A stretch of DNA of 64,000 nucleotides from a virus (lineage: Duplodnaviria; Caudoviricetes). Location of the stretch: positions 1,177-65,176 of IMG/VR virus record IMGVR_UViG_3300031251_000018; one strand, 5' to 3'. Positions 18,386 to 36,600 of the stretch are shown here, piece after piece (position 1 is the first letter of the stretch; each line of letters begins with the position of its first letter). Under the pieces are notes generated by a model that saw only the letters and a list, made by a program, of their open reading frames with translations, was not told the origin of the DNA and ran no database searches. The position numbers and the translations under genes were made by a program.

Positions 18386-19660
18386 ATGGCCGACACAACG
18401 AACCAACAAGAGCGCGCGCACGCCGACGCCGGCTTTTCCGGCGCCGAGCGATACATGGCTTGTCCGGCCTCTGTGACGAAGGCGCGCGGGAAGTTTCGTC
18501 CCTCCACGATCTACTCGCGCAAGGGAACATTCCTGCACGAACTCTCCGAGATCATCATCCACGGTCAGCCGATCCCCGACACGATCCAGGTTGAAGACGA
18601 TGTCTTCGACGTGACGCCGGAAGACATAGAGATCGTCACCGCCTACACGCGCTATGCCGAAATCCTGCGCGACACGGCCGACCGTCTCTACATCGAGGAA
18701 CGCGTCACCCTCGATTACTTCTACCCGAACGGGATGCCCGAGCCGGTTTTCTCGCATCTCGACCTCGGCGCGTATCAATCCAACGGCGGCCATCCGATCC
18801 TGACCCTCGCCGATCTGAAGGGCGGCCGGGGCTATCTGGTCAGCGCCGAGAACAACGCGCAGTTGCGCGGTTATGCGCTCGCGCTTCTCGGCCGCGTGCT
18901 CTCCGAAGGGCTCCAGAAGCCCGAGACAATCCGGCTCGTGATCGTTCAGCCGCACGACTACGGCAGTCCGATCAAGTCCGAGACGATTACTTGCGACGAA
19001 CTTCTGGAATGGTTTCGCGACGAACTTGATCCGGCGTTGCGCCGTCTCGCGGCAAACGACCAGACCGAGAGCGCCGGCAAATGGTGCCGCTGGTGCGCTC
19101 GCGCTGGTGAATGCCACGCCCTGACCCGCACAGCGATGGAGACTGCGCGTCTCGCCTTCGCCGCCGCGCCCCTCCCGGCAAAATATACCGGGGGAGGCGC
19201 TGTGTCCGGCGGCAAGGAACCGCCCGAGCCGACCGAGCTTTCCAACGATGATCTCGCCGCGATCCTCGATAAGGCGGAAATCATCGAGTCGTGGATCGAG
19301 AAGGTTCGGGCGACGGCCTCAAACCGGATTGACCACGGCCAGAGGGTGCCGGGCTGGAAGCTCGTTGCCAAGCGCGCCCAACGCAAATGGGCCGACGCGG
19401 AGAAGGCCGAGAAGGCGCTGATGATGCAAGCGCCGATCAGCGAAATCTTCACGCGCAAGCTCAAATCCCCGGCCCAGGCCGAAGCCCTTTTGAAGACGAA
19501 GGCAATGACCAAGGAAGGCATCGCCGTTTTCCTTGCGCCTCTCGTCTCCAAAGAATCGAGCGGGACCACCTTGGTTCCTGCCGACGATCCACGTCCTGCC
19601 GTGGACACAAGCGCCGCTGCGGCGTTCGCAGCAAATCCCATCAAACTCGGGAGCAAATAA
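18386..19660 (+). CDS. DUF2800 Cas4-like PD-(D/E)XK exonuclease
   Basis: SGAERYMACPAS, GTFLHE, DLKGG, NAQLRGYA, IVQP, WCRWC...C, GWKLV. Confidence 0.9.
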   Translation: MADTTNQQERAHADAGFSGAERYMACPASVTKARGKFRPSTIYSRKGTFLHELSEIIIHGQPIPDTIQVEDDVFDVTPEDIEIVTAYTRYAEILRDTADRLYIEERVTLDYFYPNGMPEPVFSHLDLGAYQSNGGHPILTLADLKGGRGYLVSAENNAQLRGYALALLGRVLSEGLQKPETIRLVIVQPHDYGSPIKSETITCDELLEWFRDELDPALRRLAANDQTESAGKWCRWCARAGECHALTRTAMETARLAFAAAPLPAKYTGGGAVSGGKEPPEPTELSNDDLAAILDKAEIIESWIEKVRATASNRIDHGQRVPGWKLVAKRAQRKWADAEKAEKALMMQAPISEIFTRKLKSPAQAEALLKTKAMTKEGIAVFLAPLVSKESSGTTLVPADDPRPAVDTSAAAAFAANPIKLGSK

Positions 19661-20272
19661 ATGGGTGTGGTTACTCCGTTCGCAACTTTGGCCTTTCCGG
19701 CCCTGTTTACACCGCGCCGCCGCGTGAAGGATGATCCGACTTCGCAGTTGGTCTATTCCGCCACGCTTATCTTCTCGCCGGACGAACAGAACACCCCGGC
19801 GTTCGAAGCCCTGAAGGCCGCGGCGCGCGACGAATTCAAGGCGAAATATCCCGATAAGAAGATGGTCGGCGCCTACGCCAACCCCTTCCGCAAGGGTTCC
19901 GAAGTCGATTACGAGGGCTTCGGTGAGGAAGACATCTACATCGCCGTCCGCACGACGGACAAACCTGCGGTGAATGATGTTTGGGGTAATGAAATTCCCG
20001 ACAGCGAGGCCAAGAAGGTTTTCGCCGGTCAGCTTGTTCGCGCTTACGTGAACCCTTGGGCTTACGATAAGAGCGGCAACCGCGGCGTGACGTTCTTCCT
20101 CAACGGTATTCAGATCATCGATGCGAACCGTCCGCGCATCGACGGCCGTGTGAATTCCGATAAGATGTTCCCGACGGACGATCTGGAGGAATTCAGGAAG
20201 TCGGCTCCGAAGCCCTCGGCAGGAGCCAAGGCGCCTGCGCCAGCAATGGCCGACGACGACATGCCTTTTTAA
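19661..20272 (+). CDS. DUF2815-family ssDNA-binding protein
   Basis: LAFPALFTP, YSATL, GNRGVTFFLNGIQ, acidic C-terminus DDDMPF. Confidence 0.9.
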   Translation: MGVVTPFATLAFPALFTPRRRVKDDPTSQLVYSATLIFSPDEQNTPAFEALKAAARDEFKAKYPDKKMVGAYANPFRKGSEVDYEGFGEEDIYIAVRTTDKPAVNDVWGNEIPDSEAKKVFAGQLVRAYVNPWAYDKSGNRGVTFFLNGIQIIDANRPRIDGRVNSDKMFPTDDLEEFRKSAPKPSAGAKAPAPAMADDDMPF

Positions 20273-20658: not shown

Positions 20659-21159
20659 ATGACCCCCGAAGAGATCGACGCAAACCCGAAGAAAGCGTTC
20701 GGCGCGCTGAAGCCGTCCCTACACTACGCCCCCATGAACGCGATGCTTCAAGTTGCGCGCGTCTTCGAACTCGGGGCGAAAAAATACGGCTTGAAAAATT
20801 GGAGGCGCCAGCCAGTGGACGCCTCGACATATTACAGCGCCGCGTATCGGCATCTGATCGAATGGTTTGAGAGCGGCGTCAACGTCGATCCCGAAAGCGG
20901 GCAGCATCCGCTCGCGCACGTCATCGCGTGTTGCCTGATCGTGATCGACAGCACCGAGGGTGGCGAACTGATCGATGACCGCGGCTTCGCCGAAGTGCTC
21001 ACAGGGACGCAGGGTGCACCGGCGGCTCCCACGCCGCCCGCTCCACCACCGCCGCCGCCGGCTCCTGATAGCCCCCACGTGGCTCCGACGGACAACCTGG
21101 GCTCCGACATCTCGGCGGCGATCGAACAAGCTCTGACGACTTTATCGCATCACGAATAG
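20659..21159 (+). CDS. dATP/dGTP diphosphohydrolase (DUF5664)
   Basis: NPKKAFG..K, GAKKYG..NWR, YYSAAYRHL, DPESG.HPLAH. Confidence 0.88.
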   Translation: MTPEEIDANPKKAFGALKPSLHYAPMNAMLQVARVFELGAKKYGLKNWRRQPVDASTYYSAAYRHLIEWFESGVNVDPESGQHPLAHVIACCLIVIDSTEGGELIDDRGFAEVLTGTQGAPAAPTPPAPPPPPPAPDSPHVAPTDNLGSDISAAIEQALTTLSHHE

Positions 21160-21252: not shown

Positions 21253-22086
21253 ATGAGGGTGATGGCCGCTGTTTACATCGACATCGATCCGCACGCGTGC
21301 CGATGGACAGAGAATTTAATTGCCGCGGGTCTCGTGGCCCCTGGTGAAGTATGGAACGTGGATATTCGAGATGTCCGACCGATCGACCTTAAAGGATTCC
21401 AACAAGTCCATCTCTTCTCAGGGATCGGTGCGTGGTCGCACGCCCTCCGGTCTGCGAACTGGCCGGACGACCGAGAAGTCTTCACGGTCTCTTGCCCTTG
21501 CCAGCCTTTCAGCGCGGTCGGCGGCAGAACAGGGCTTGCTGACGAGCGGCACCTATGGCCCGCCGCCGATTGGCTTATCGGACAACTCCGTCCTGCAATT
21601 ATTTTTGCGGAACAAGTTAGCAGCAAGGACGGCCTCGCTTGGTTCGACGTTGTTCACGCTGACCTGGACGCGAAGGATTACGCCGTCGGGGCTCTCGATC
21701 TCTGCGCTGCGGGCTTCGGTGCGCCTCACATCCGACAGCGCCTATACATTTGTGCCGTGGCCGACGCCGAAGGCGTCCGACTGCCTCGGCGGAAGAACGA
21801 CGAACACGAAGGGCGGGGGCAACAAACATCTCGACAAGGATGTTCGACTCCTAACGAAACAAACGGGTTCTGGCGCCATTGCGATTGGAAGCGCGGAGCG
21901 GACAAGCGTCTCCGCGCCGTTGAGCCCGGCGTTGAGCCGGTGGTTGATGGGTCTGCCTTCCGCCTGGGATCGGGCGGCCCCTACGAAGGAAAGAGCCGCC
22001 GGCAGATGCTCAAAGGCTACGGCAACGCGATAGTCGCGCCGTTAGCCACGGAAGTCATCAAAGCGTTAATGGAGTGCGTGCCGTGA
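21253..22086 (+). CDS. DNA cytosine-5 methyltransferase, large (alpha) polypeptide
   Basis: LFSGIG (I), PCQPFS (IV), EQV (VI), HIRQRLY (VIII), YGNAIV (X); no motif IX seen in this frame. Confidence 0.9.
   Translation: MRVMAAVYIDIDPHACRWTENLIAAGLVAPGEVWNVDIRDVRPIDLKGFQQVHLFSGIGAWSHALRSANWPDDREVFTVSCPCQPFSAVGGRTGLADERHLWPAADWLIGQLRPAIIFAEQVSSKDGLAWFDVVHADLDAKDYAVGALDLCAAGFGAPHIRQRLYICAVADAEGVRLPRRKNDEHEGRGQQTSRQGCSTPNETNGFWRHCDWKRGADKRLRAVEPGVEPVVDGSAFRLGSGGPYEGKSRRQMLKGYGNAIVAPLATEVIKALMECVP
21371..22033 (+). CDS. Putative overlapping small (beta) polypeptide of the methyltransferase, +1 frame
   Basis: Open for 220 codons inside the MTase gene; WPTPKASD and LSPALSRWLMGLPSAWD (motif IX-like). 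Confidence 0.7.
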   Translation: MSDRSTLKDSNKSISSQGSVRGRTPSGLRTGRTTEKSSRSLALASLSARSAAEQGLLTSGTYGPPPIGLSDNSVLQLFLRNKLAARTASLGSTLFTLTWTRRITPSGLSISALRASVRLTSDSAYTFVPWPTPKASDCLGGRTTNTKGGGNKHLDKDVRLLTKQTGSGAIAIGSAERTSVSAPLSPALSRWLMGLPSAWDRAAPTKERAAGRCSKATATR

Positions 22087-22856
22087 TGCTATTTGCTCAA
22101 CCGTCGTCAGTCATGAACACCGAGATCAGGCTTCCGCCGCCGTCCCGTAAGGACAAAGTCCGCAAGATAATAGCGGAAGAAGCCCGGCGGTGTGGCATCT
22201 CTGTTGACGAATTGCTGGAGGATAACCGGCGCGGATGGGTGTTGGGCATCCGGCAATACGCAATGTGGCGCGCACGCATAGAGACAAAATGCTCTCTCCC
22301 GGAGCTTGGGGTGCTATTTGATTGCAGTCACGTGACGATCAAATACGCATTTCGAAAGGTAGAAGCGATAGCCCCCGATCTGCGCGGTGTGTTTGGCCCG
22401 AAGCCGATGGATGCGGCTCGCGGGATCATAGCCGAAGAAGCGGCACGCGGCGGGTATTCGGTTGATGAGATTCTTTCGCAGAAACAAACAAAGCGGCTGC
22501 GATCCGTCAGACAATACGCGATGTGGCGTGCCCACAAGGAAACCAAGTGCTCTCTTGTCGACCTCGGTGAAGCATTCGACCGCGATCATTCTTCGGTTCT
22601 CCACACGATCCGACGCGTAGAGGCGATGGCCCCCGACCTACGCGGCGTGTTCAGCCCGTGTCCGAAAGTCAGAATACGCCAGAAGATAATACCGAGGCCG
22701 CGGAAGGTCGCAGAAACGTATCAGGGCCGCCCGTGCGGGTATGGACATTCCGGTCTTCGATACAGAGTGAATAGACGGTGTATCGAGTGCAATGCGATCG
22801 GGGTTGCGCGGAGATACTGGCAGCGTAAAGCGGAGCGCGAGAATGATTTGGACTGA
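22086..22856 (+). CDS. Protein with two DnaA domain IV-like HTH repeats and a C-terminal Cys/His cluster
   Basis: RQYAMWRA..ETKCSL..LG..FD twice, second copy has DRDHSSVLH; PCGYGH...RCIEC. Confidence 0.8.
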   Translation: MLFAQPSSVMNTEIRLPPPSRKDKVRKIIAEEARRCGISVDELLEDNRRGWVLGIRQYAMWRARIETKCSLPELGVLFDCSHVTIKYAFRKVEAIAPDLRGVFGPKPMDAARGIIAEEAARGGYSVDEILSQKQTKRLRSVRQYAMWRAHKETKCSLVDLGEAFDRDHSSVLHTIRRVEAMAPDLRGVFSPCPKVRIRQKIIPRPRKVAETYQGRPCGYGHSGLRYRVNRRCIECNAIGVARRYWQRKAERENDLD

Positions 22857-23280
22857 ATATCTTTACGGCTTCGCCGAGCACGCCGCGAAGAAAAGCAAGG
22901 ACTCAACCCAGGTCGGCGCGGCGCTCGTCGGCCCTGAGTTGGAAGTCCGGCTGACCGCTTTCAACGGGCCGCCGCGCGGCGTCCGTGATCTCGCCGAGCG
23001 TCGCGAGCGGCCGACGAAATATATGTTCGCTTCGCACGCTGAAGCAAACCTGATTGCTTTCGCCGCGCGTGAGGGCATACGCACGAAAGGCTGCACGGTC
23101 TACGCCACGCACATGCCTTGCGCTGCCTGCGCCCGCACGCTGATCCAGGCCGGCATCCACAGGGTCGTCTATGGCCCCGGAGTGGCCGTCATGCACAACG
23201 ACGCCGAACTTCTCGCAACTGAAGCGATGTTTCGAGAGGCCGGCGTCACCTTATTCCCCTGTGGCAAGATAGGAGACTGA
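22843..23280 (+). CDS. dCMP deaminase
   Basis: SKDSTQVGA, NGPPRG, HAEANLI, PCAACAR. Confidence 0.92.
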   Translation: MIWTEYLYGFAEHAAKKSKDSTQVGAALVGPELEVRLTAFNGPPRGVRDLAERRERPTKYMFASHAEANLIAFAAREGIRTKGCTVYATHMPCAACARTLIQAGIHRVVYGPGVAVMHNDAELLATEAMFREAGVTLFPCGKIGD

Positions 23281-23282
23281 AA

Positions 23283-23552
23283 ATGGCTCTCAGAACTGAA
23301 GAAGACGCTCGCAAAACATGGTGCCCATTCGCACGCGTCGCGGCGATGGTTCAGACCGCGCCGGGGCAGGGCGTCGTTGTCACCGTCAACCGTTCGCAAG
23401 GGGCATTGCAGCGAGGAATCATGCAGCCCGGCTGCGAATGTCTTGCCTCAGATTGCGCGTTTTGGGTGTCTACGCCGCTGGATGGCCCGACCAAGTCTGG
23501 TGAATGCGCGATGGCGCGTGATCCGAACAAGGCAAAACTTTTCAATTCCTGA
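23283..23552 (+). CDS. Cys-rich hypothetical protein
   Basis: TEEDARKTWCPFAR...CLASDCAFW...GEC motif. Confidence 0.75.
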   Translation: MALRTEEDARKTWCPFARVAAMVQTAPGQGVVVTVNRSQGALQRGIMQPGCECLASDCAFWVSTPLDGPTKSGECAMARDPNKAKLFNS

Positions 23553-23568
23553 GCGGAGAACCGGGGTC

Positions 23569-23802
23569 ATGAAAATAGCTAGACTTGAACAGATAAAACT
23601 GTGTTCGACGATCGGGCGCGTCCTCTTCGGGGTTGGGGTCGTGATCGTTGCGGTCCCGGTTCTTTTCGCGATCCCCGGCGCCTTCATTCTTGGTGTCGGT
23701 TACATCCTGACCCAGGTCGGCGAGGATATGTGGAACATCCACCATAACCAGCCGAAGCGTGGACCCGCCGCCGAGTCGTTTTTTCCGTGGGAGAGGCGCT
23801 GA
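23569..23802 (+). CDS. Small membrane protein
   Basis: GGAG RBS; long hydrophobic segment. Confidence 0.55.
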   Translation: MKIARLEQIKLCSTIGRVLFGVGVVIVAVPVLFAIPGAFILGVGYILTQVGEDMWNIHHNQPKRGPAAESFFPWERR

Positions 23803-23895
23803 TATGTCCGACACAAGCATCATGAACCTTGTCGTCTCCCTACTGATCGCCGGGTTCTTCGCCATCGTTGTCAAGCTCCTATTGGAGGATAAGCC

Positions 23896-24480
23896 GTGAC
23901 GGATTTTACGAAAGAGGAAGCGACGAACGAACTGCGGTTCTTTCCCAAGCTGTTTATGACCGGCCCACAGGAATTCGAATACTCCGGTTCGTATGCTTTG
24001 CAGCAAAGATGGAAGATTACGAGGGGCGGTCTCGGGCGAGTCGACTATACCGAAGAGTGGCGCGACGTGCCGATCGTCTCCGTTGCTGCGGCTGCCACTA
24101 CGGGGCGGAAAGCAGCCCCGGCGGAGAAATCGCCGCGTAATTACGCGTTCGATCTCGTAACGCACATCCGTAGAGCGCGGGCATTCTCCGAAAAGACCTT
24201 CGGTCCCGGCGCTCGCACGAAGGGCGTTGTCGAGCACATCCGTAAAGAGCTTAACGAGATTCTGGCCAAGCCGGACGATATTGAAGAGTGGGTCGATGTT
24301 ATGATTCTCGCAATCGATGGGGCTTGGCGCGCGGGCTACTCTCCCGAAGAGATCACGTGGGCGCTCGACGCCAAGCAGTTCAAGAACGAAGGCCGGAAAT
24401 GGCCGGATTGGCGAAACTTCGCCGCTGACCAGCCGATCGAACACGACCGCCGAGGCGAACAAGGCTTTGAGACGCGATGA
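23896..24480 (+). CDS. DUF550 dATP/dGTP pyrophosphohydrolase with an N-terminal extra domain
   Basis: FSEKTFGPGARTKGVVEHIRKEL, EEWVD..ILAIDGAWR, KNEGRKWPDWR. Confidence 0.9.
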   Translation: MTDFTKEEATNELRFFPKLFMTGPQEFEYSGSYALQQRWKITRGGLGRVDYTEEWRDVPIVSVAAAATTGRKAAPAEKSPRNYAFDLVTHIRRARAFSEKTFGPGARTKGVVEHIRKELNEILAKPDDIEEWVDVMILAIDGAWRAGYSPEEITWALDAKQFKNEGRKWPDWRNFAADQPIEHDRRGEQGFETR

Positions 24481-24737
24481 ACACGCAATTCCTTCTTATG
24501 GCGCAATACAATGGCGCCGCGGTGATCCCCTTGTCTGTAGTCTGTAAAGACTACTTCAAGCATCTCACCCCTGAAAAGTTCGCGCGCAAAGTCGCTCACG
24601 GCGAGATCAAGCTGCCGATGATCCGAATGGAGGGCAGCAACAAGTCCGCGCGCGGCATCCACATAGCCGATCTCGCCGCCTACCTGGACGAACGCCGCGA
24701 AGCGGCGATCAAAGAACTGAAGCAGATCACGGAGTAA
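24477..24737 (+). CDS. Pyocin activator PrtN-family protein (candidate excisionase)
   Basis: MNTQFLLMAQY...IPL..V..DYF.HLT...GEIKLP...KSARG.HIADLAAYLD. Confidence 0.9.
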   Translation: MNTQFLLMAQYNGAAVIPLSVVCKDYFKHLTPEKFARKVAHGEIKLPMIRMEGSNKSARGIHIADLAAYLDERREAAIKELKQITE

Positions 24738-24742
24738 CCCCG

Positions 24743-24967
24743 GTGCCCGATCTCATTATCCTCGATCTCGTGGAACGCCGGCTTGCGCGGAAACTCTCTC
24801 GCCAGGAAGTGGCGACGCGCATCGGTGTTTCGGCACAGAGATTCGGACAGTGGGAGCTAGGTCGGTGCGAACCGTCGCTTCGCTTATTGCGCGAGTGGGG
24901 GCTGGCGCTTGATGTGGTGTGGAAGCCGAAAGTTTTGAGAACGCCACGGGGGAAAAGCAATGGTTGA
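24743..24967 (+). CDS. XRE-family HTH protein
   Basis: RRLARKLSRQEVATRIGVS...WELGRCEPSL. Confidence 0.8.
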   Translation: MPDLIILDLVERRLARKLSRQEVATRIGVSAQRFGQWELGRCEPSLRLLREWGLALDVVWKPKVLRTPRGKSNG

Positions 24968-25895
24968 CGACGAAAACCACGAAGCTCACGGCGCGATGAT
25001 CCACCGCGGAATTGTCGAACAGCGGCAGTATAACGCCGACCAGCGGCAGAGTGCGCTAGAGGCTGAGAATAAGCGCCTGACCGCCGAACTCGCCGCCGCC
25101 AAGCAGCTTGACGTTAATCGCGTGCTGCAATTGGAGACGGCGTTTGCGTTGTGTGAGACCTTGGAATCCGAGCGAGACGCCCTCCGCGCCGACCTCGCAG
25201 AAGCGCAAGACGCGGCGGAATTGTGCTGCGCTGGTCAGGACGATTTGAAGAAGGAGAATGACAACCTGCGCGCCGAACTCGCAACCAAGGCGATGCAGTG
25301 CTGCTCACTCGCGGATAGCGTTGGCGTGTATATGGGGCGTGTTGACGACCTGCGCGCCGAACTCGCCGCCGAAGAGGAAACGAGCGTAGATACATGGGTG
25401 CGCGTCAAAGAATTAGAGGTTGACCTAGAAGAAGCCCGCTCCGAACTCGCCGTCGCTAATGAGGTTATAGACCGCCTTGTAAAAACCGAGCGCAAAGTCG
25501 CAGATGCAATTGGCGACGCCTACCTTCTCGACCTCCCTGATGGTGGCGACGTTAAGCTGTGGGAAGGCGCGCAAAGGCTCCGCGCCGAACTCGACAAATG
25601 GATAGCAAGGGCGAGCGAGGACTGGCCAGAAGCGGCCTCAAAAATCGAACGCTTGACCGCCGAACTCGCCCGGCTACAAGAGTGTTTCACGGGACAAGAC
25701 TACACGTATCGCAATGAAGTCGAACGTCGCGAACGTGCGGAAGCCGAGCGCGACGCCCTGCGCTCCGCTGCCAAGTGGCTGGTCGAGCAAGCCGATAAGT
25801 GCGGTTTCGTGGATGACCACGGCCACAAGCTGACGATGAATAAGGCGTTTATCGACTTGCGCGCGAGGCTGGCGAAGGGGAGCGGGAATGAGTGA
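24960..25895 (+). CDS. Modular coiled-coil protein 1
   Basis: Seven (R/T)AEL-type repeats plus AERDALR. Confidence 0.8.
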   Translation: MVDDENHEAHGAMIHRGIVEQRQYNADQRQSALEAENKRLTAELAAAKQLDVNRVLQLETAFALCETLESERDALRADLAEAQDAAELCCAGQDDLKKENDNLRAELATKAMQCCSLADSVGVYMGRVDDLRAELAAEEETSVDTWVRVKELEVDLEEARSELAVANEVIDRLVKTERKVADAIGDAYLLDLPDGGDVKLWEGAQRLRAELDKWIARASEDWPEAASKIERLTAELARLQECFTGQDYTYRNEVERRERAEAERDALRSAAKWLVEQADKCGFVDDHGHKLTMNKAFIDLRARLAKGSGNE

Positions 25896-26151
25896 CGCAA
25901 GGCTTGTGAAGCTACTGAGCGCCAAGATTGAAGAACTAGAGGCCGAACTCGCCGCCGCTAAAGCAGAAGTCGAACATCTTAATGAAGCCCTGAATTGGTC
26001 GCAGCTTGCAGAGAGTAATGCGATTGAAGCACTAGCTGAGCGAGATGAGTTGCTGCGGGATGCTCTACCATTCGTGCGGACGAAGACAAGGCATGAGGAA
26101 CTCGCAGACCGCATCGACGCGGCGCTGGCGAAGGGAGGCGGGGATGAGTGA
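25888..26151 (+). CDS. Modular coiled-coil protein 2
   Basis: MSD start, AELAAA, RIDAALAKGG end. Confidence 0.75.
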   Translation: MSDARLVKLLSAKIEELEAELAAAKAEVEHLNEALNWSQLAESNAIEALAERDELLRDALPFVRTKTRHEELADRIDAALAKGGGDE

Positions 26152-26458
26152 CGAGGCTTTCTATAAACGGCTGTCAGAGTTGGAAATCACGCACGAGATG
26201 GCCGACGAGTGCGCCGGTCGCCTGATTGCAGGGGCATTTCGCCGCACAGACAAAAAGCCCCGCTTTACTATACCGACGCGTCATGACGACGACGATGTTG
26301 TGATCGGAGAATATATCAAGCGGCAAAAGGCCGTAGTAGCCGAGCGCGACGCCCTGCGCGCGTTGCTGCGGGAGGCGCGACCATTCATATCAACGTGGGC
26401 CAAGCCGGAGTTGGTCGCCCGCATCGACGCGGCGATGGCGAAGGGAGGTGGGAAATGA
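26144..26458 (+). CDS. Modular protein 3
   Basis: MSDE start after GGAGG RBS; AERDALR; RIDAAMAKGG end. Confidence 0.75.
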   Translation: MSDEAFYKRLSELEITHEMADECAGRLIAGAFRRTDKKPRFTIPTRHDDDDVVIGEYIKRQKAVVAERDALRALLREARPFISTWAKPELVARIDAAMAKGGGK

Positions 26459-26544
26459 CAAGTATCTTTTGGGGATTTGTCGTTCCCGTTTTCGTGGCCG
26501 GTATATATTGGCTAGTGGCCTATTTAGCGGGGAGGCGGGGATGA
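26455..26544 (+). CDS. 29-aa hydrophobic peptide
   Basis: MTSIFWGFVVPVFVAGIYWLVAYLAGRRG; ATGA-coupled at both ends with GGAGG RBS. Confidence 0.55.
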   Translation: MTSIFWGFVVPVFVAGIYWLVAYLAGRRG

Positions 26545-26589
26545 GTGACGAACTGGTCGCCCGCATCGATTCGGCGCTGGGAGGCTCTC

Positions 26590-26979
26590 ATGCCGACACC
26601 TGATTTTGACAGAGAGTATGAGCGCCTGCGCGCCGAACTCGCCGCCAGCGAAAGGCTGCGCATAAATGCCATCGAGACGGCGAAATTGTTGGATGAAGAA
26701 AAAGCATCGCTTACCGCCGAACTCGCCGCCGAGAGGGAGAGGGCCGAAAAAATCCAGCAGAAAGCCGACGACGAATTTGCCACCATGTCGAAGCAACTAA
26801 ACACGTTCCTCTGCGCGGGGGCCAAGATCAAAGCCGAGCGCGACGCCCTGCGCGCCGCTGCCGAAAGTGTTGTCGACGCCTATCGAGATAAAGGCCGAGC
26901 GACGGCGGCTTTAGTCGGTCAGTGCATAGAAGACCTCGACGCGGCACTGGCGCTGGGAGGTGGGGATGCTGACGTATGA
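26590..26979 (+). CDS. Modular coiled-coil protein 4
   Basis: GGAGG RBS; RAELAA, TAELAA, AERDALR, LDAALALGG. Confidence 0.75.
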   Translation: MPTPDFDREYERLRAELAASERLRINAIETAKLLDEEKASLTAELAAERERAEKIQQKADDEFATMSKQLNTFLCAGAKIKAERDALRAAAESVVDAYRDKGRATAALVGQCIEDLDAALALGGGDADV

Positions 26980-27352
26980 ACAAGCCCTGCGGGACTTGCA
27001 GAGTTATAGCGACAAGATATTCCGCCTTGAAGCCGAACTCGCCGACGAGCGGGATAAGTCTGCCGGATATGAATATGCGCTTAAACAGTTTGATGAGCGT
27101 GTGGCTGGACTGACCGACGAGCTCGCCGCCGTTATAAAGACGCGCGATAAAGCCTACGGTTTGTGGCTGCAAGGCAAAGCCGAACTCGCCGCCGAGCGGG
27201 AGCGCGTCACCAAGCTGCGCGAGGCGCTGGAGCCGTTTGAGAAGGCGGCGGAAACATGCAAACGGTCGCTCGGGACGACGCCAGACGATCAGGTTTACGG
27301 CGTCTATGTCGGCGACCTCCGCCGCGCCCAAGCCGCATTGAAAAAAACTTAG
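26966..27352 (+). CDS. Modular coiled-coil protein 5
   Basis: GGAGG RBS; three AELA/DELA units; LREALEPF...GDLRRAQAAL end. Confidence 0.75.
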   Translation: MLTYEQALRDLQSYSDKIFRLEAELADERDKSAGYEYALKQFDERVAGLTDELAAVIKTRDKAYGLWLQGKAELAAERERVTKLREALEPFEKAAETCKRSLGTTPDDQVYGVYVGDLRRAQAALKKT

Positions 27353-27358
27353 GGGGGA

Positions 27359-27553
27359 GTGATGGAATACCTAGCCTATTTCCTCGCCGCGGCGAAGGGC
27401 GCCTCCGAGATCACGGCGATCGTCCTCGGCTCATACCTTCTCGTTGGCTCGATCCTCTCGATCTACACGTGGAGCCGCGACCGCAGCGGCAACAGCAAAC
27501 GCGGCGAACACTATACCGAGAACCGCCGCATCGACGGCCCGGATGGAGCGTGA
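27359..27553 (+). CDS. Small membrane protein
   Basis: GGGAG RBS; hydrophobic segment. Confidence 0.5.
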   Translation: MMEYLAYFLAAAKGASEITAIVLGSYLLVGSILSIYTWSRDRSGNSKRGEHYTENRRIDGPDGA

Positions 27554-27556
27554 TCG

Positions 27557-27820
27557 TTTCTACGCCGCCCGCTACGCCACGCCCCGCGGAGCCCGGCGTA
27601 ATCGATGGATGTCTCATCGTGTCCCGTTTTCTGTAGGCCCGATCCATCATCGGCGCGACGCAGAAGCGAATGTCATTGGAATCTAAGCGAGTGCTCGATT
27701 TTTCAACGCCTTGTATCTCGAGATAACGCGCCTTGTCTTCCACCATTGTCGCCCTTTATCGCCTATTCCCTTGCCATTCCTACACCGGGGGCGTAGAAAC
27801 TCACCGTCATGGCGTAGAAA
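27557..27820. other. attP region with dusA-derived core (about 27642-27668) and arm-like repeats
   Basis: Minus strand encodes RFCVAPMMD (DusA N-terminal motif) and then diverges; GGCGTAGAAA twice near 27790-27820 and inverted TTTCTACGCC at 27557. Confidence 0.8.
27642..27746 (-). pseudogene. dusA: Replacement 5' fragment of tRNA-dihydrouridine synthase A
   Basis: MVEDK...DIRFCVAPMMD; DusA begins RF(S/C)VAPMMDWTD. Confidence 0.7.
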
Positions 27821-27837
27821 GTGGGCGGTCATATCGG

Positions 27838-28905
27838 ATGGCGGGAACGATTGTAGAGCGGAAACGGGCAGATGGCACGACCGGCTACCGGGCCGAGATC
27901 ATCATCTACGCCGGTGGCCGGATCGCGCACCGCGAGTCGAAGACCTTCGACCGGCGACCCGCCGCCCGGGTGTGGTTGGAGAAGCGCGAGGCCGAACTGG
28001 AGCGCCCCGGCGCCGTAGAAAAAGCCAAGCTGAAGTCTGAAGGCGCGACGCTCGCCGACGCAATCGACCGCTACGTCGCGACCAGCCGGAAGGAGATCGG
28101 CCGGACAAAGGCCCAAGTCCTGCGGTCGCTGGCCGGGATGCCGATCGCCGCGCGCCCCTGCGCCGATATCAGGAGCCCCGATCTCGTGGCCCTCGCCGAG
28201 GGGCTCGGGAAGGACAGGACGCCGCAGACCGTGGCGAACTACCTCTCGCACCTTCAGGCCGTCTTCACGATCGCCCGCGCCGCGTGGGGCTTTGAGCTTG
28301 ACCCGGCGGCCATGGCCGACGCCTTCAAGGTCACTCGGCGGCTTGGCCTGACCGGCAAGTCGATCGGACGCGACCGCCGACCGACGCGCGCCGAGATCGA
28401 CACCCTGATGGCTTTCTTCCACGACCGCGGTTGCCGCCGGCCGCGCTCGGCGCCCATGCACCGGATCATCCCCTTCGCCCTCTACTCGACGCGCCGGCAG
28501 GAAGAGATCACGCGCATCCTGTGGTCCGATCTCGAGATCGAGCACCGCCGCGTCATGGTCCGCGACATGAAGAACCCCGGCGATAAGCTTGGCAATAACG
28601 TATGGGTCGATCTGCCGGATGAGGCTCTCGCGGTCCTCGATCTGATCGAGAGGACCGACGACCGGATTTTTCCCTTCGGAACCGACGCCATCTCGGCGTC
28701 GTTCACGCGAGCCTGTCACCGGCTCGGGATCGAGGATTTGCACTTTCACGACCTTCGGCACGAAGGGATCAGCCGGCTATTCGAAATGGGCTGGAACATC
28801 CCGCACGTCGCCGCGGTGAGCGGGCACCGCAGTTGGACTTCGCTCAAACGCTATACGCACATCCGCGAGAGCGGCGATAGATGGACAGGAGATTGGTGGA
28901 GATGA
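27838..28905 (+). CDS. int: Tyrosine integrase, dusA-associated type
   Basis: GTIVERKRADG N-terminus; STRRQEEI (R), DMKNP (K), FHDLRHE, SGHRSW, KRYTH. Confidence 0.95.
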   Translation: MAGTIVERKRADGTTGYRAEIIIYAGGRIAHRESKTFDRRPAARVWLEKREAELERPGAVEKAKLKSEGATLADAIDRYVATSRKEIGRTKAQVLRSLAGMPIAARPCADIRSPDLVALAEGLGKDRTPQTVANYLSHLQAVFTIARAAWGFELDPAAMADAFKVTRRLGLTGKSIGRDRRPTRAEIDTLMAFFHDRGCRRPRSAPMHRIIPFALYSTRRQEEITRILWSDLEIEHRRVMVRDMKNPGDKLGNNVWVDLPDEALAVLDLIERTDDRIFPFGTDAISASFTRACHRLGIEDLHFHDLRHEGISRLFEMGWNIPHVAAVSGHRSWTSLKRYTHIRESGDRWTGDWWR

Positions 28906-29171
28906 GCGAACCAGCAAATACCACAGAGAGCATTTACATCGCTCGGGAGAAAGAGCGCCGGTGGCTGCTTTGGGCTATGAAGACGCGCCCATTGACCCAG
29001 GACGAGTGGGCGCGCGTGCAGTCGGAAGATTATATGCTTTGCATTGAATTCAACCCTCACGGGATGTCTCGATCGTATAACGAGCAGGATAAGAAACGCG
29101 AATTCAACGATCTCATCTATCAGCAATTACGCATTACAAAGCTTATGGAGAAGGACAAAACAGATGATTAA
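28902..29171 (+). CDS. Hypothetical protein
   Basis: ATGA-coupled to integrase. Confidence 0.6.
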   Translation: MSEPANTTESIYIAREKERRWLLWAMKTRPLTQDEWARVQSEDYMLCIEFNPHGMSRSYNEQDKKREFNDLIYQQLRITKLMEKDKTDD

Positions 29172-29556
29172 GAACATCGCTTTGATCGCCGCAGCAGCGA
29201 CGCTCGCCGGTTGCGCCAGCACGCCGCAGCCGATCCCGCTCACCAAGCCGATAGAGGATCAGGCGAAGATGCTGACGCTGAAGCAAGCGTATAGCCCGGC
29301 CGATGTTCAGTTCGGACCTATGAAGACCTTCCGGCAGGACGATTCAACAACCGTGTGTGCGCTTATAAACGGTGCGAACCCCTTTGGCGGTCGCACGGGG
29401 TGGGAGCCGGTTTTTATGCGCTTCCCTGATGACGGAAGCGGCCCGTCGTTTCTTGACGGACGAGATGGCGCAATACGTTGTCCGAAGAACACCCTCGGGC
29501 TCGAAAACCCTGTGGACCCCGTATTGCTGAGGAAGAACGGGATTACAGCGCGCTAA
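29164..29556 (+). CDS. Lipoprotein
   Basis: Signal and lipobox MIKNIALIAAAATLAGC; VCALINGANPFGGRTG. Confidence 0.8.
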   Translation: MIKNIALIAAAATLAGCASTPQPIPLTKPIEDQAKMLTLKQAYSPADVQFGPMKTFRQDDSTTVCALINGANPFGGRTGWEPVFMRFPDDGSGPSFLDGRDGAIRCPKNTLGLENPVDPVLLRKNGITAR

Positions 29557-29571
29557 TCGAACGGAGGGCAA

Positions 29572-29781
29572 ATGAGAATGAACCGACGCAATTTCCTGAT
29601 GGGCCTCATCGCCGCCCCGGCCATTATCCGCACGCCGGGCCTTCTAATGCCGATCAAGCGCATCATCGAGCCGGCGCGCCCGATGCTGGTCAGCCTCTTC
29701 CCTGACGAGTTCCACGTGACCGCCGGCACATTTTCCATTGTCATGCCGGGTCAGCCCTACGAGATCATCAGGATCAGTTAA
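29572..29781 (+). CDS. Small protein with twin-arginine-like N-terminus
   Basis: NRRNFL..LIAAPAII...LMPIK; GGAGG RBS. Confidence 0.65.
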   Translation: MRMNRRNFLMGLIAAPAIIRTPGLLMPIKRIIEPARPMLVSLFPDEFHVTAGTFSIVMPGQPYEIIRIS

Positions 29782-29788
29782 AACGCAG

Positions 29789-29817
29789 AAAAACCCCCGC
29801 AGCCGAAGCTGCGGGGG
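29789..29817. terminator. Intrinsic terminator between convergent operons
   Basis: A-run then CCCCCGCAGC-CGAA-GCTGCGGGGG; U-tail on the minus strand. Confidence 0.75.
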
Positions 29818-29903
29818 CCAGACAGAAGAGGGGCCGACCGGCGTCCGATCGGTCTCGGGGGTCAACGAGACATTTGACCGGGCGCCGCTCTCTCCTGCCT
29901 ATC

Positions 29904-30182
29904 TCAATCGAGCATCTTCTTCAGCAAGCCGTGGCCGGACTCGCTCGTAGCCCAAGCGAAGATACTGCCGACGACTGTCAGGAAGACCACGACACGGGCT
30001 CCGAGGCGCGCGAGCGCGCGGTTCTCGCCGTCTTGTTCTGCGCGCTGCACCTTGATCTCTTGCAGCGTCGCCTCAATATCCTCAACCTTCTCCGCGACAT
30101 ATCGTGCGTGCTGTCGCTGCAAGGATTCCAACATATCAAGCCGCGCCATTATAGCTCCGCACTCGGCGCTTCCGTCCGGCAT
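29904..30182 (-). CDS. Coiled-coil plus single TM protein (lysis-region, holin-like)
   Basis: GGAGG RBS; VVVFLTVVGSIFAWA helix. Confidence 0.6.
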   Translation of the reverse strand: MPDGSAECGAIMARLDMLESLQRQHARYVAEKVEDIEATLQEIKVQRAEQDGENRALARLGARVVVFLTVVGSIFAWATSESGHGLLKKMLD

Positions 30183-33622: not shown

Positions 33623-36600
33623 TTAAGCCACCTGTGTCAATGCGCTCGCCGGCGTAACGATCGTGCCGGCCTTTGCGCCGGTCACAGTCGATCCGCCCGC
33701 CGCGGGGGTGATATTGCTTTGCGCCTGGGCGGCGATCAGCGCCGTGACTGCCGTCGCCGAAGTCACGACCGACGACCCGGTGACGACGAGGTTGTTCTTC
33801 GTCGTGACGATCAGCGTGCGTGCGACGCCGGTCGCCCATGTCTGGAATGGCGGGATGAAGCTCAACGGAGCCGCCGAGCCCGTCGCCGCCGCGCTTCCTA
33901 GCGGAACATTGTCGTTTACCGCAGCGCCTCTCGCTATGCCGGTCGCGCTCGCCGGTGCGATTGACGGCTGATCCGAACCTTGTATGCCGGTGGCCGTTCC
34001 CGTCGCCGAGGCCGCAAGGCCGCTGATCGAAAGAGCGGCGACGAGCGGGTTCGCCGTCGCATTGGCCGTGGCCGGCGAGATCGAGCCGCTAGTCGTGAAC
34101 CCGAGCGTCGACGCCGTTCCCGTCGCGCTGACCGACAGGGCCGAAGGCGTCGGCTGACCGCTTGCGCCGCCCGCTGATGCGGTCGCGCCGGCTTGGGCCA
34201 CAGACACCGCGCCAGTTTTGGAAACCGCTCCAGCGACGCCCGTAGCTGCGGCAGGGGCCGACGCGAGCAGCACTTGCGCAACCAGCCCGCCAACGCTGCC
34301 CGTCGCGGTCGCGGGAGCCGCGTTCGGGCTGGCCACATTGCCGACCGACGCCGCAACGCCCATCGCCGAGGCGACGGGCGCCGTCGCGGCAACAGACACG
34401 AAAAGCGGGCCGCTTGCGACGCCGCTCGCAAGCGCGGGGGCGGCCGACACGTTGCCGCCACTCGAAATTGTGATGTCAGCCGCAACGCCCGTCGCAGAGA
34501 CCGGCGTCACCGATACGAACTGGCCAGCAACCGCGGTCGCCGCCCCGACCGCGCCAACGCCGACCGCAGGAGCCACCGTCACCGAAACGGGCTCGGAGAC
34601 TCCCGCCGCCGCGCCAGCCGCCGCCGCGCCCGCAATGCTGGGCGAAACACCGCCAACGCCCGCGCCCGCAACGCCCGAACCAGCCGCGCCGATCAGCGCA
34701 TATTGAGCCGCGTCAGCAAGACTCGCCGCTGCGCCCGTTCCGCTCGCCTGACCGGATGCGCTTGAAGCCGTCCAGCCCAGCGCGCCAGCGGCGCCCGAGC
34801 CCGTTGCCTGGGCGACCACAAACGAACTCGAAAAAAGTAACGTGGTCGCAACGCCATTTGCCGGGGCAGGGGCGGCCGTGGGTGCGTCAAGTGGGGTTAT
34901 GGCCCCAACGCCGCCCGTCGCCACCGCAGGCGCGCCAGCGGCGCTTTCCGCCACGGCCAGCCCCGCCGCCGCGCCGGTCGCACTCGCGCCGGCCACGGGC
35001 ACGCCGATTTGCTCGACCACCGAACCGGCAACGCCAGCCCCAGCCGCCGCGCCGATCGACACGGCCACGGCCACCGACAGGGAAGCCGCAAGACCCGTCG
35101 CCGCCGCCTGCGAAGCACTGACGTTGATCGTGCTGTTCACATTCACCGTCACCGAGCCGGCGACGCCGCTTGCGGCGGCAGGCGACGCTGTGACCGCAAC
35201 CGAAGGCGTCAGTCCACCAATAGCCCCAGCGGCCGCCGCTTGCCCGGTTGAGATCGAGCCCGTCTCAGCGACGCCGGTCGCAACGCCGGTCGCAGAAGCA
35301 GCCGGGGTGCTGATCGAAATTTGCTCCGTCGCGGAGCCGGCGACGCTGGTCGCAACCGCCGACGAGATCGACGGCGACACCGCCGCCACAAGAGGCGCGG
35401 CCACACCTGTTGCCGCCGCGCCGGTCGCATTCACATTGAGCGCGCTCACCGCCGAGACGCTCACCGCGCCGGCAACGCCCGAACCGGCCGCTTGCGCGAC
35501 CGTAAGTGAAACCGAGGGCGTCACCCCGGCGGCGCTTGCTAGGCCGGTCGCCGGGGAAAGGGTTGCAGGCGAAATAGCCGGGTTGGGCGACCGTGCTATT
35601 CCCGTCGCGGTCGCCACACCGAGGCCGGGGGAAATAACCCCTGGCAGCGAGCCTGCCGTTCCCGTTGCCCACGCGTTACTGCTAATAGCCGGGGCAGCTT
35701 CGACCCACGCGTTTTGCAGCGTTATAGACGAGCCGTTCGCGTATGTCGCGCTGCTTTCAACTCCTGTGAATTCGTCGTGATACCAAACCGTGACGGAGCC
35801 CACGTCCGCGGTCGAATACGTCTCTGCGGCTCGGGTTGCCGTTGCGCCCCAAGTGTAAATCGGGCTTGTAGCGACGCTTGAATTGCGTATGCCGGCATAG
35901 GCGATGTCAAATTTTTCTGCGCCCGTAGTCGTGATCGTTGGGGATGTTGTGTTGCCTGAGAGGAACCCGAATCCGAGGTAGTAGCTTGCAGCCGAGGCGG
36001 TGAAGTGGACAACGCATTTATACCAGCCGCCGCCTATTGGCTCTATGGAAGAACTAGATATGCCGGCGCTATAAACACCTGCGATTCCATTTTGAATATC
36101 GAAAGCGGCGACGTTCCAACTGCCGAGGTAATAACCGCCCCACACCCATTGCTGCGAGGTATCATACCTGAAGTAGAATATAGCCGTTGCAGGACCGGCC
36201 GCGAGTGCAATCGACCCTGGCGTCTGCCACGATACCTGATTGGTTGTCGCCGCATTGCCAATAACCGTTGACGGGAGCCCATCCGGCCCATTTACGCCAG
36301 TTGGCGATTGAGTTGCGCCGCCCCATTGATACCAATATGTATTCCACGCCCGAGAGTATTGGCAAAGTTCTGTATCGCTCTGCTCAACCAGCACGCCCCT
36401 ATACGCCAGCGTATTCGGGTTGTAATCGTCGCGCCTTCCATAGTAAGGCGAAGACCCCGTAGACACGTAGGGTCTTGGTGAAGTTTGATACGTCACAAGG
36501 TCTAGTTGGAAACCCCACGCGATCAGCGTATCGCCTACAAGCGCGCTTCCGAGATAACTATTCGCTTTTTGTGAGTTTGGTCTTATCGCCGCGTTGGCTG

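Follow-up and report, generated by a model that had tools for sequence, protein, structure and literature searches.

The 64,000-nt stretch of phage DNA analysed here (the window) covers nearly all of the virus record IMGVR_UViG_3300031251_000018, which is 65,176 nt long, has direct terminal repeats and is rated complete. Between excisionase and helix-turn-helix (HTH) regulator genes on one side and a tyrosine integrase gene on the other, where every gene lies on the plus strand, positions 24960–27352 of the window hold five tandem paralogous genes (A, B, C, E and F) and one 20-codon remnant (D; Table 1). A first-pass annotation of this DNA had noted that short DNA repeats recur inside these putative coiled-coil genes, separated by unrelated spacers, and had proposed that in-frame modules are exchanged or added by recombination at the repeats. 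The feature is real and not a composition effect, and the proposed exchange is supported by mosaic relatives, by frozen codons in the repeats and by the dissimilarity of the spacers. Our analysis also brought out features beyond that annotation: a KLREALEPF motif, a conserved junction between genes, common C-terminal tails and the remnant at 26541–26603.

An AERDALR box and the tail (R)IDAALAKGGG are common to genes A, B, C and E, which are therefore paralogues, and gene F carries an alternative C-terminal half, KLREALEPF...GDLRRAQAAL. Successive genes abut or overlap through the conserved junction, in which a single string encodes the tail of one protein (...GGGDE-stop), a Shine–Dalgarno-like GGAGG and the start of the next protein (MSD...). 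Its 22-nt form GGGAGGCGGGGATGAGTGACGA is found as two exact copies, between B and C and before remnant D, with variants at A/B and E/F; junction copies identical over 19–23 nt are present in G001, a complete 64-kb viral record whose own array spans the record ends. The ribosome-binding site of each following gene doubles as coding sequence for the glycine-rich tail of the protein before it (KGSGNE, KGGGDE, KGGGK, LGGGDADV; 25877–25898, 26133–26154, 26444–26459, 26530–26551 and 26949–26973).

At all 13 annotated positions we found a copy of the main motif (11 with at most one mismatch, those at 25188 and 27116 with two), which encodes the peptide A-E-L-A through the 12-mer GCCGAACTCGCC. Across the whole window, 15 matches to this 12-mer with at most one mismatch were detected, compared with 1.37 expected and a maximum of 4 in 100 shuffles; 11 of them lie in the array and the others at 24666 (plus strand) and at 6968, 7415 and 56842 (minus strand). 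The second annotated motif, the AERDALR 21-mer GCCGAGCGCGACGCCCTGCGC, was likewise recovered as three exact copies at the positions given for it, with one further copy carrying 3 mismatches (0.05 expected). We refer to these strings as linkers.

The intervals between AELA-type linkers were those annotated (105, 84, 84, 84, 144 and 75 nt in gene A, 84 nt in gene E, 84 and 63 nt in gene F), and most of them are indeed multiples of 21 nt (7 of 9; P = 3e-5, given a chance of 1/7 for in-frame spacing). Over six loci, the same holds for 14 of 21 distinct intervals (P = 6e-8). The spacers are as dissimilar as the annotation had suggested: their proteins gave a mean local-alignment score of 14.5 versus 14.4 after shuffling (maximum 27 versus a shuffled maximum of 35), and a comparison of their DNA agreed, with similarity at the shuffled level. 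They do not align to one another as old tandem duplications, an origin that the annotation had itself raised. Their G+C content is also lower than that of the repeats (0.549 versus 0.75 for the 12-mer, and 0.59–0.60 in the surrounding region of the window).

Table 1. Features of the array and of neighbouring genes (positions in the window)
Feature	Position	Strand	Details
Gene A	24960–25895	+	311 amino acids; seven AELA-type linkers, two AERDALR copies, tail RLAKGSGNE; open reading frame (ORF)/translation
Gene B	25888–26151	+	87 amino acids; one AELA copy, tail RIDAALAKGGGDE; start overlaps gene A stop; ORF
Gene C	26144–26458	+	104 amino acids; no AELA, one exact AERDALR, tail RIDAAMAKGGGK; start overlaps gene B stop; ORF
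Remnant D	26541–26603	+	20 codons (MSDE + LVARIDSALGG...), gene start fused directly to gene tail; repeat families D8, D10
Gene E	26590–26979	+	129 amino acids; two AELA copies 84 nt apart, one exact AERDALR, tail DLDAALALGGGDADV; ORF
Gene F	26966–27352	+	128 amino acids; three AELA-type copies (84 and 63 nt apart), then KLREALEPF...GDLRRAQAAL; ORF
Junction A/B	25877–25898	+	Shine–Dalgarno-like GGAG, start ATG, overlapping stop (ATGAGTGA); repeat family D10
Junction B/C	26133–26154	+	GGGAGGCGGGGATGAGTGACGA; encodes ...GGGDE-stop and MSD...; repeat family D10
Junction before remnant D	26530–26551	+	22 nt, exact copy of junction B/C; repeat family D10
Junction E/F	26949–26973	+	variant; 3′ border of the block common to L001; repeat family D12
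AELA linker	25083–25094	+	exact 12-mer
AELA-type linker	25188–25199	+	GCCGACCTCGCA, ADLA, 2 mismatches
AELA linker	25272–25283	+	1 mismatch
AELA linker	25356–25367	+	exact
AELA-type linker	25440–25451	+	SELA, 1 mismatch; 5′ border of the module common to L084 and G001
AELA-type linker	25584–25595	+	AELD, 1 mismatch; 15 nt past the 3′ border of the module common to L084 and G001
AELA linker	25659–25670	+	exact
AELA linker	25942–25953	+	exact, gene B
AELA linker	26632–26643	+	exact, gene E
AELA linker	26716–26727	+	exact, gene E
AELA linker	27032–27043	+	exact, gene F, Leu25
AELA-type linker	27116–27127	+	GACGAGCTCGCC, DELA, 2 mismatches, gene F, Leu53
AELA linker	27179–27190	+	exact, gene F, Leu74
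AERDALR-type linker	25167–25187	+	3 mismatches
AERDALR linker	25743–25763	+	exact 21-mer
AERDALR linker	26339–26359	+	exact 21-mer
AERDALR linker	26833–26853	+	exact 21-mer; 5′ border of the 97% L001 block
KLREALEPF linker	27212–27238	+	91–97% identical over 27–35 nt to G001 copies
Exonuclease	18386–19660	+	phrog_69 1e-77
Gp2.5-like single-strand annealing protein	19661–20272	+	phrog_112 1e-23
PrtN-type excisionase	24477–24737	+	PF11112 7e-30, phrog_1300 6e-32
HTH regulator	24743–24967	+	directly upstream of gene A; PF01381 1.4e-6
Tyrosine integrase	27733–28905	+	downstream of the array; PF00589 7e-19, phrog_1 2e-40

Codon conservation and predicted structure at the linkers

The observation that the repeats nearly always use the same codons was reproduced. 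In the AELA-type copies of the array, the first Ala is GCC (11/11), Glu is GAA (11/11), Leu is CTC (12/12) and the last Ala is GCC (9/11). These choices do not follow the codon bias of the phage, in which, judged by 37 long ORFs (12,390 codons), GCC and GCG make up 0.36 and 0.45 of the Ala codons, GAA 0.51 of those for Glu and CTC 0.31 of those for Leu. The exact 12-mer encodes 8 of the 9 AELA peptides of the array versus an expectation of 0.02 per site (P = 3e-13). Elsewhere in the phage (15,936 reference residues), the tripeptide AEL occurs five times with five different codon sets, none of which is GCCGAACTC. An internal control lies directly beside the motif: the conserved Leu 4 residues upstream of the motif Leu (2 before the first Ala), which is a coiled-coil core position, is encoded variously by CTG, CTC, TTG, CTA and CTT.

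The same codons recur in relatives. In the loci G001, L001 and L084, which were found by protein similarity, we counted GCC in 14/14, GAA in 14/14 and CTC in 14/16 cases. A further, independent set was fetched through the peptide L[RA][EAK]AL[EKR]PF, so that the motif itself was not selected for; in these 16 loci other than G001, the exact 12-mer encodes 5 of 8 AELA peptides (0.013 expected per site, P = 2e-8), the five copies coming from three loci and two of them from one contig of 49% G+C. In LREALEPF, Ala is GCG in 23 of 24 copies and Pro is CCG in 16 of 24 (19 sources: L205–L221, window 27215–27238 and L003), counts that are not independent because L210, L213 and L215 are close relatives. 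Ala is thus GCG in one linker and GCC in the other, and codon choice therefore tracks the motif and not the genome. As judged from these sequence comparisons, each linker has its own frozen codons, and codon bias is not the explanation. The motif also has a role at the protein level, since the peptide RLRAELAAERE is conserved in the consensus of 73 family members.

Structure prediction agreed with the coiled-coil character that had been assigned to the proteins. The AlphaFold2 model of gene A (single sequence) is nearly all helix (residues 4–189, 196–281 and 293–307) at a mean predicted local distance difference test (pLDDT) score of 66.5, and that of gene F (73 aligned sequences; pLDDT 90.8) consists of one helix spanning residues 4–101, a loop and a short helix. 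As a homodimer, gene F scored 0.69 versus 0.00 for the best of three controls, a level reached by 20 of 30 proteins solved as one-chain pairs and by 1 of 23 single-chain ones. Contacts agreed to at least 98% between homodimer runs, with a partner pLDDT of at least 91. The two chains meet in register, with contacts such as 25-25, 74-74 and 84-84, and the 3-4 pattern continues without a break over residues 4–98; Leu25, Leu53 and Leu74 of the three gene F linkers, 28 and 21 residues apart, all lie in the interface at one heptad position. The model supports, but does not show, pairing of the gene F protein as a parallel in-register dimeric coiled coil. Given that this Leu has a fixed heptad position and that the spacing is mostly in multiples of 21 nt, frame and register would both survive a crossover, whichever two linker copies recombine, which explains the 21-nt spacing without an argument from DNA phasing. 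A fold search with the gene F model against the PDB returned nothing (best E-value 1.6).

Mosaic blocks in related arrays

Related arrays were found by several routes. Searches with gene A gave one locus in viral contigs, one in metagenome contigs and none in genome contigs, and protein-guided scans led to G001, L001 and L084. Collinearity of related phages would speak against module exchange, as the first-pass annotation had pointed out; the relatives proved not to be collinear and instead carry the same segments in other combinations and contexts, with breaks at the motifs. For example, the module ANEVIDRLVKTE...DGGDVKLWEG (window 25441–25569) matches L084 at 95% and G001 at 79% DNA identity, and it sits in three different proteins with unrelated flanks, the similarity beginning at the linker. 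Similarly, the last 132 nt of gene E (window 26837–26968) are 97% identical to L001 from the AERDALR box through the gene junction; upstream of this block, similarity between the two genes is confined to islands at the AELA copies.

Comparisons among the relatives gave the same picture. L035 and L001, which come from one metagenome and have flanks that are 95% identical, differ by exactly 168 nt (2 × 84) present in L035 between two linker copies, and their homology stops at the next copy. G001 and L205 share 208 nt at 99.5% identity, starting 27 nt before a gene junction and ending inside the 12-mer, after which one protein continues into an A-type tail and the other into an F-type tail. G001 and L068 are identical over 116 nt from an AERDALL box onward and unrelated before it (100% identity); L069 and L084 share 112 nt at 93%, bounded by two linkers, and the block common to G001 and L208 begins at KLREALEP.

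To place these borders on a common scale, we compared the 25 block ends with a list of linkers made up of the AELA motif, AERDALR and the conserved gene junction, a pattern that misses the E/F junction. The distance to the nearest listed linker was at most 4 nt for 16 ends, at most 8 nt for 19 and at most 15 nt for 22, compared with means of 2.4, 3.3 and 4.8, respectively, for positions drawn at random in these arrays; the observed numbers were reached in 0 of 20,000 draws. The 25 ends stem from about 13 events and the BLAST alignments run into adjacent conserved islands, so that the P value is too optimistic.

The stretch around remnant D (window 26459–26603) looks like the scar of a deletion or unequal crossover. 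In one Logan contig of metagenome run X5 (depth 6.9), position 26377 is joined to 26562 through 30 other letters, which represents a variant arrangement, and these letters resemble the VMQLPEHRR stretch of G001 and L068. Four metagenome runs were compared in this way as Logan contigs at depths of 2–9, which are fragmented, so that uncovered stretches are uninformative. Gene C is followed by an 82-nt, A+T-richer gap with a terminator-like hairpin at 26470–26488 and then TTTTCG, sites for which the scan counts are at chance level; overall, a promoter and terminator scan gave counts no higher than chance.

Probable module exchange at linkers and rival explanations

Taken together, the comparative evidence makes it likely that the short in-frame linkers are crossover points for module exchange, a novel variant of linker-mediated phage mosaicism. 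The locus would then hold small early genes of a temperate siphovirus-like phage, paralogous to one another, arrayed in tandem and coupled in translation. Its proteins would be long α-helices that pair as parallel in-register coiled coils and consist of unrelated modules joined by a few short linkers, namely (L-R/T-)A-E-L-A(-A) encoded by GCCGAACTCGCC(GCC), AERDALR, KLREALEPF and, at gene ends, the 22-nt junction of previous tail (GGGDE-stop), ribosome-binding site and next start (MSD). These linkers are kept at the nucleotide level, synonymous sites included, in this genome and across otherwise unrelated phages, and would serve recombination on short homology, with module swaps, insertions, deletions and the exchange of whole-gene cassettes as outcomes. 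Candidate enzymes are the phage exonuclease together with the Gp2.5-like annealing protein, or host RecA; the genes for the former two and for a RuvC-like resolvase lie upstream of the array on the same strand. The linkers may be selected for their role in exchange or merely homogenised by it. As for function, where the first-pass annotation had suggested possible host-interaction or anti-defence factors, our guess is that these are accessory early proteins that could bind host or phage partners under diversifying pressure.

Several points weigh against this interpretation. The evidence for recombination is wholly comparative, with no event directly observed, and draws on a small number of close relatives, with six contigs behind the main mosaic comparisons and three more behind single blocks. 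As noted above, the block ends reflect roughly half as many events as ends, and 6 of the 25 lie more than 8 nt from a listed linker; two ends of one block stop 15 nt short of a linker, a further end precedes a junction by 10 nt and two fall inside a gene that does not encode a coiled coil, 143–147 nt from any linker, while the sixth, at window 26968, is at the E/F junction that the pattern lacks. Seven of the 21 distinct intervals are not multiples of 21 nt, and 3 of the 8 AELA peptides in the peptide-fetched loci use other codons. Part of the persistence of the motif is explainable without a DNA-level cause. Finally, the exact linker core measures 12–15 nt (25–31 nt between some copies), and minimal efficient segments are 31–34 bp for RecA and 23–27 bp for Red-beta (PMC3945230). 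With a core mostly shorter than these segments, single-core crossovers are expected to be infrequent, although they would be enough over evolutionary time.

The closest competitor of linker-mediated exchange is an ordinary repeat coiled coil, in which an old 28-residue tandem duplication has diverged except for a structural peptide, gene conversion keeps the DNA alike and the mosaicism is independent of the motifs. It would account for the protein-level conservation of RLRAELAAERE among the 73 family members, for the predominance of 84-nt (28-residue) intervals and for the three exact AERDALR 21-mers of the window, which are more alike than the copies of relatives, as conversion within a genome would produce. 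We nevertheless consider it unlikely: the spacers have no residual similarity to one another, the same codons occur in phages that share no other detectable DNA, one of them at 49% G+C, block ends cluster at the motifs, and the L001/L035 indel is exactly two units long with motif copies at both bounds. Less likely again is that the 12-mer acts in cis as a binding site for protein or RNA, phased on the DNA and coding by coincidence. Synonymous sites are frozen within and between genomes in keeping with such a signal, all array copies are on one strand, and 63, 84 and 105 nt would correspond to 6, 8 and 10 turns of 10.5 bp. All copies, however, share one reading frame, one peptide and one heptad position, intervals of 75, 144, 153 and 159 nt break the phasing, and two other motifs and the gene junction behave alike. 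The motif is not palindromic and belongs to no inverted repeat, the RNA folds no better than shuffled sequences (z −0.16 to +0.95 in four stretches), and Rfam gave no match in 22000–30000 at E-values up to 1.

Composition could matter in principle, because AELA is common in G+C-rich coiled coils, where preferred codons give the same 12-mer; indeed, a scan of bacterial genomes for two 12-mers 63–93 nt apart returned at least 120 stretches, mostly in unrelated actinomycete genes of 70% G+C or more, with neither a host nor related arrays among the matches listed. In this phage, by contrast, Ala is encoded most often by GCG rather than by GCC and CTC accounts for less than a third of Leu (0.31), and both the excess over shuffled sequence (15 versus 1.4) and the absence of GCCGAACTC from the five outside AEL tripeptides make a composition effect very improbable. 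We give least credence of all to a known diversity machine, that is a CRISPR array, a diversity-generating retroelement or a shufflon, to which the repeat/spacer-like layout and the adjoining tyrosine recombinase gene might point; this recombinase matches ordinary phage integrases (phrog_1 2e-40). CRISPR arrays consist of non-coding direct repeats of about 24–48 nt with spacers of similar length and adjacent cas genes. The present repeats are 12–21 nt long, lie in frame inside open ORFs and are spaced by 63 to 144 nt, and no cas family was found among the neighbouring proteins scanned, a subset of the window ORFs. A diversity-generating retroelement was rejected since PF00078 had no match in the complete 65-kb record (the same search was positive in 3 of 14 control genomes) and there is no long repeat pair, and a shufflon because 24700–27700 contains no inverted repeat pairs and the motif copies of the array share one strand.

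In a stronger form of linker-mediated exchange, which we regard as possible but doubtful, the AELA(A) core (12–15 nt), AERDALR, KLREALEPF and the ribosome-site/ATGAGTGA junction would be shared recombination joints under DNA-level selection, or the target of a dedicated phage enzyme, at which unrelated temperate phages swap heptad-phased coiled-coil modules and whole gene cassettes in frame. If so, the shared joints would be the phage counterpart of exon shuffling and would yield combinatorial libraries of early proteins. Descriptions of phage mosaicism usually place it at gene boundaries and, within genes, mainly in receptor-binding proteins. Here the principle would operate inside a row of early, non-structural genes, in a design that makes almost any crossover productive because the codon string is fixed, the Leu occupies one heptad position and the modules are mostly whole heptads. 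The array may thus offer a concrete example of short conserved DNA channelling recombination into viable protein variants, and it brings to light a large unnamed family of small phage proteins. Should the linkers be selected for exchange, they would provide a natural template for engineering coiled-coil libraries by recombination and a marker for finding fast-evolving phage accessory genes.

Protein family, known systems and phage setting

We found no named phage with this array. A blastn search of 23800–29000 against 50,697 phage records matched the integrase part only (60–80% identity) and none of the records covered the array; a word-based protein search with gene E returned only the gene E protein itself and that of L001, and blastn of the whole window against 83 loci gave only two blocks passing an E-value of 1e-10. 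A profile of F-type proteins was more sensitive, detecting 1,420 cluster representatives at E ≤0.001 (34 at E ≤1e-10), mostly of 90–200 residues. The family thus comprises more than a thousand 50%-identity sequence clusters, with codon-exact linker copies in contigs of 49–60% G+C. No Pfam family was common to the 73 members scanned, and Pfam, PHROGs and NCBIfam gave only sub-threshold coiled-coil noise for the array proteins, which belong to no named family.

A looser scan of viral contigs for motif pairs yielded at least 80 loci, some of them array-like (L024, L042, L020, L069, L035) and many from unrelated families or tandem and CRISPR-like repeats; they were left out of the codon statistics because the motif itself had served to select them. 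Arrays built in the same way lie directly upstream of excisionase/integrase genes in L042 (10719–11126), L024 (3979–5101), L205 (2309–3417) and L084 (224–2134), with small overlapping genes, RLRAELA near the start, LREALE later and a short common tail (ALEGKP, AIEGxx). In one member of the L042 array, RLRAELAA is preceded by an N-terminal part that contains PGPW and is of a kind typical of Ead/Ea22-like proteins. The motif-pair scans also caught L083 (6974–7791, a viral contig) and L117 and L130 (bacterial genomes), in which 4–12 direct repeats with a period of 71–78 nt contain CCGAACTCGC; these look like CRISPR arrays and are unrelated to the coiled-coil array.

In the open literature searched (main texts), nothing that we found describes arrays of early coiled-coil genes with heptad-phased, codon-frozen linkers, and the peptide string LRAELAA led to unrelated work only. 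In lambdoid phages, boundary or linker sequences between small genes serve as recombination points. Comparable whole-gene shuffling has been reported for the PeSL cassettes of T4-type phages, in which short conserved regulatory units shuffle small non-essential genes (Arbiol et al. 2010, PMC2839356). The 22-nt junction would take that part in the array; PeSLs are promoter and terminator units between genes, whereas the junction here combines coding sequence and ribosome-binding site in a coupled operon and most linkers are intragenic. Within genes, the nearest likeness is to the gp38 adhesins of T-even phages, in which conserved glycine-rich motifs lie between hypervariable segments (Trojet et al. 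2011, PMC3157838). As in the array, short conserved motifs alternate with unrelated variable segments, which are described as independent and readily interchanged. The gp38 motifs, however, form the structural core of a virion receptor-binding domain, whereas those of the array are heptad-phased points in early non-structural coiled coils, and the array differs from gp38 in its synonymous-site conservation, its several paralogues in a row and its conserved gene junctions. A mechanism is offered by relaxed phage recombination, since phage recombinases, of which Gp2.5-like proteins are one of three superfamilies, recombine short, diverged sequences, and such annealing proteins give rise to mosaics (De Paepe et al. 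2014, PMC3945230). The homologies treated in that work run to hundreds of bases, compared with exact 12–15-nt cores inside genes in the array.

The comparison with the modular Ea22-like genes of lambdoid phages, also made in the first-pass annotation, held as an analogy but not as membership. In both cases, early genes near xis/int encode highly diverse proteins; those of Ea22 have a short N-terminal part followed by a coiled coil and a variable C-terminal region (PMC7093339, PMC10834534), and the array proteins, which are helical in the models, may be built along the same general lines. None of 15 array proteins, however, reached Pfam Ead_Ea22 (PF13935), which was unlisted for 5 window proteins (E up to 0.01) and 10 array proteins of relatives (E up to 1), as well as for the 73 family members (E up to 0.001); the Ead/Ea22 Atlas feature score was weak (0.82, below the lead level of 0.9). 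Lambda Ea22 has a mixed α-β C-terminal domain (PMC10834534), and none is present in the array protein models. Moreover, Ea22 is a single gene, in whose description a repeat/spacer layout or frozen codons do not appear (accessible sections of PMC7093339), whereas the array has several genes. Ea22 proteins are reported in the same source to end in a common K/RGE motif, compared with KGGGDE, KGSGNE and KGGGK in the array. By analogy with the array tails, the K/RGE ending might have the same trivial cause, a downstream ribosome-binding site.

The phage itself, which comes from rhizosphere metagenomes, is tailed and temperate and encodes a large terminase, portal, major head protein, tape measure and tail fibre. 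Its replication and recombination genes comprise those for a DNA polymerase, primase, helicase, RuvC-like resolvase, ParB-like nuclease, exonuclease and the Gp2.5-like annealing protein, and it further carries genes for a methyltransferase, a dCMP deaminase, two MazG-like proteins, the PrtN-type excisionase, the HTH regulator and the tyrosine integrase. The large terminase shares 57–61% identity with its counterparts in Pseudomonas, Burkholderia, Salmonella and Stx phages, which does not point to one host. Part or all of the stretch is present in 8 rhizosphere metagenome runs, two of which may be its source.

Just upstream of the excisionase gene lie genes for two separate MazG-like dATP/dGTP pyrophosphohydrolases and the dCMP deaminase (20659–21159, 22792–23280 and 23896–24480) and for the DNA methyltransferase (21253–22086), a set of nucleotide-pool genes that is unusually rich for a temperate phage. 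On the minus strand, a 1,573-codon ORF at window 33623–38344 matches a tail protein family at residues 638–1025 only (phrog_5939 2e-20) and crosses the stretch of highest G+C in the window (0.695 in 34001–36000). Between gene F and the integrase gene, a 64-codon ORF (27359–27553) has a hydrophobic N-terminal half (MMEYLAYFLAAAKGASEITAIVLGSYLLVGSILSIYTW...), and its product may be a small membrane protein, judging by this sequence.

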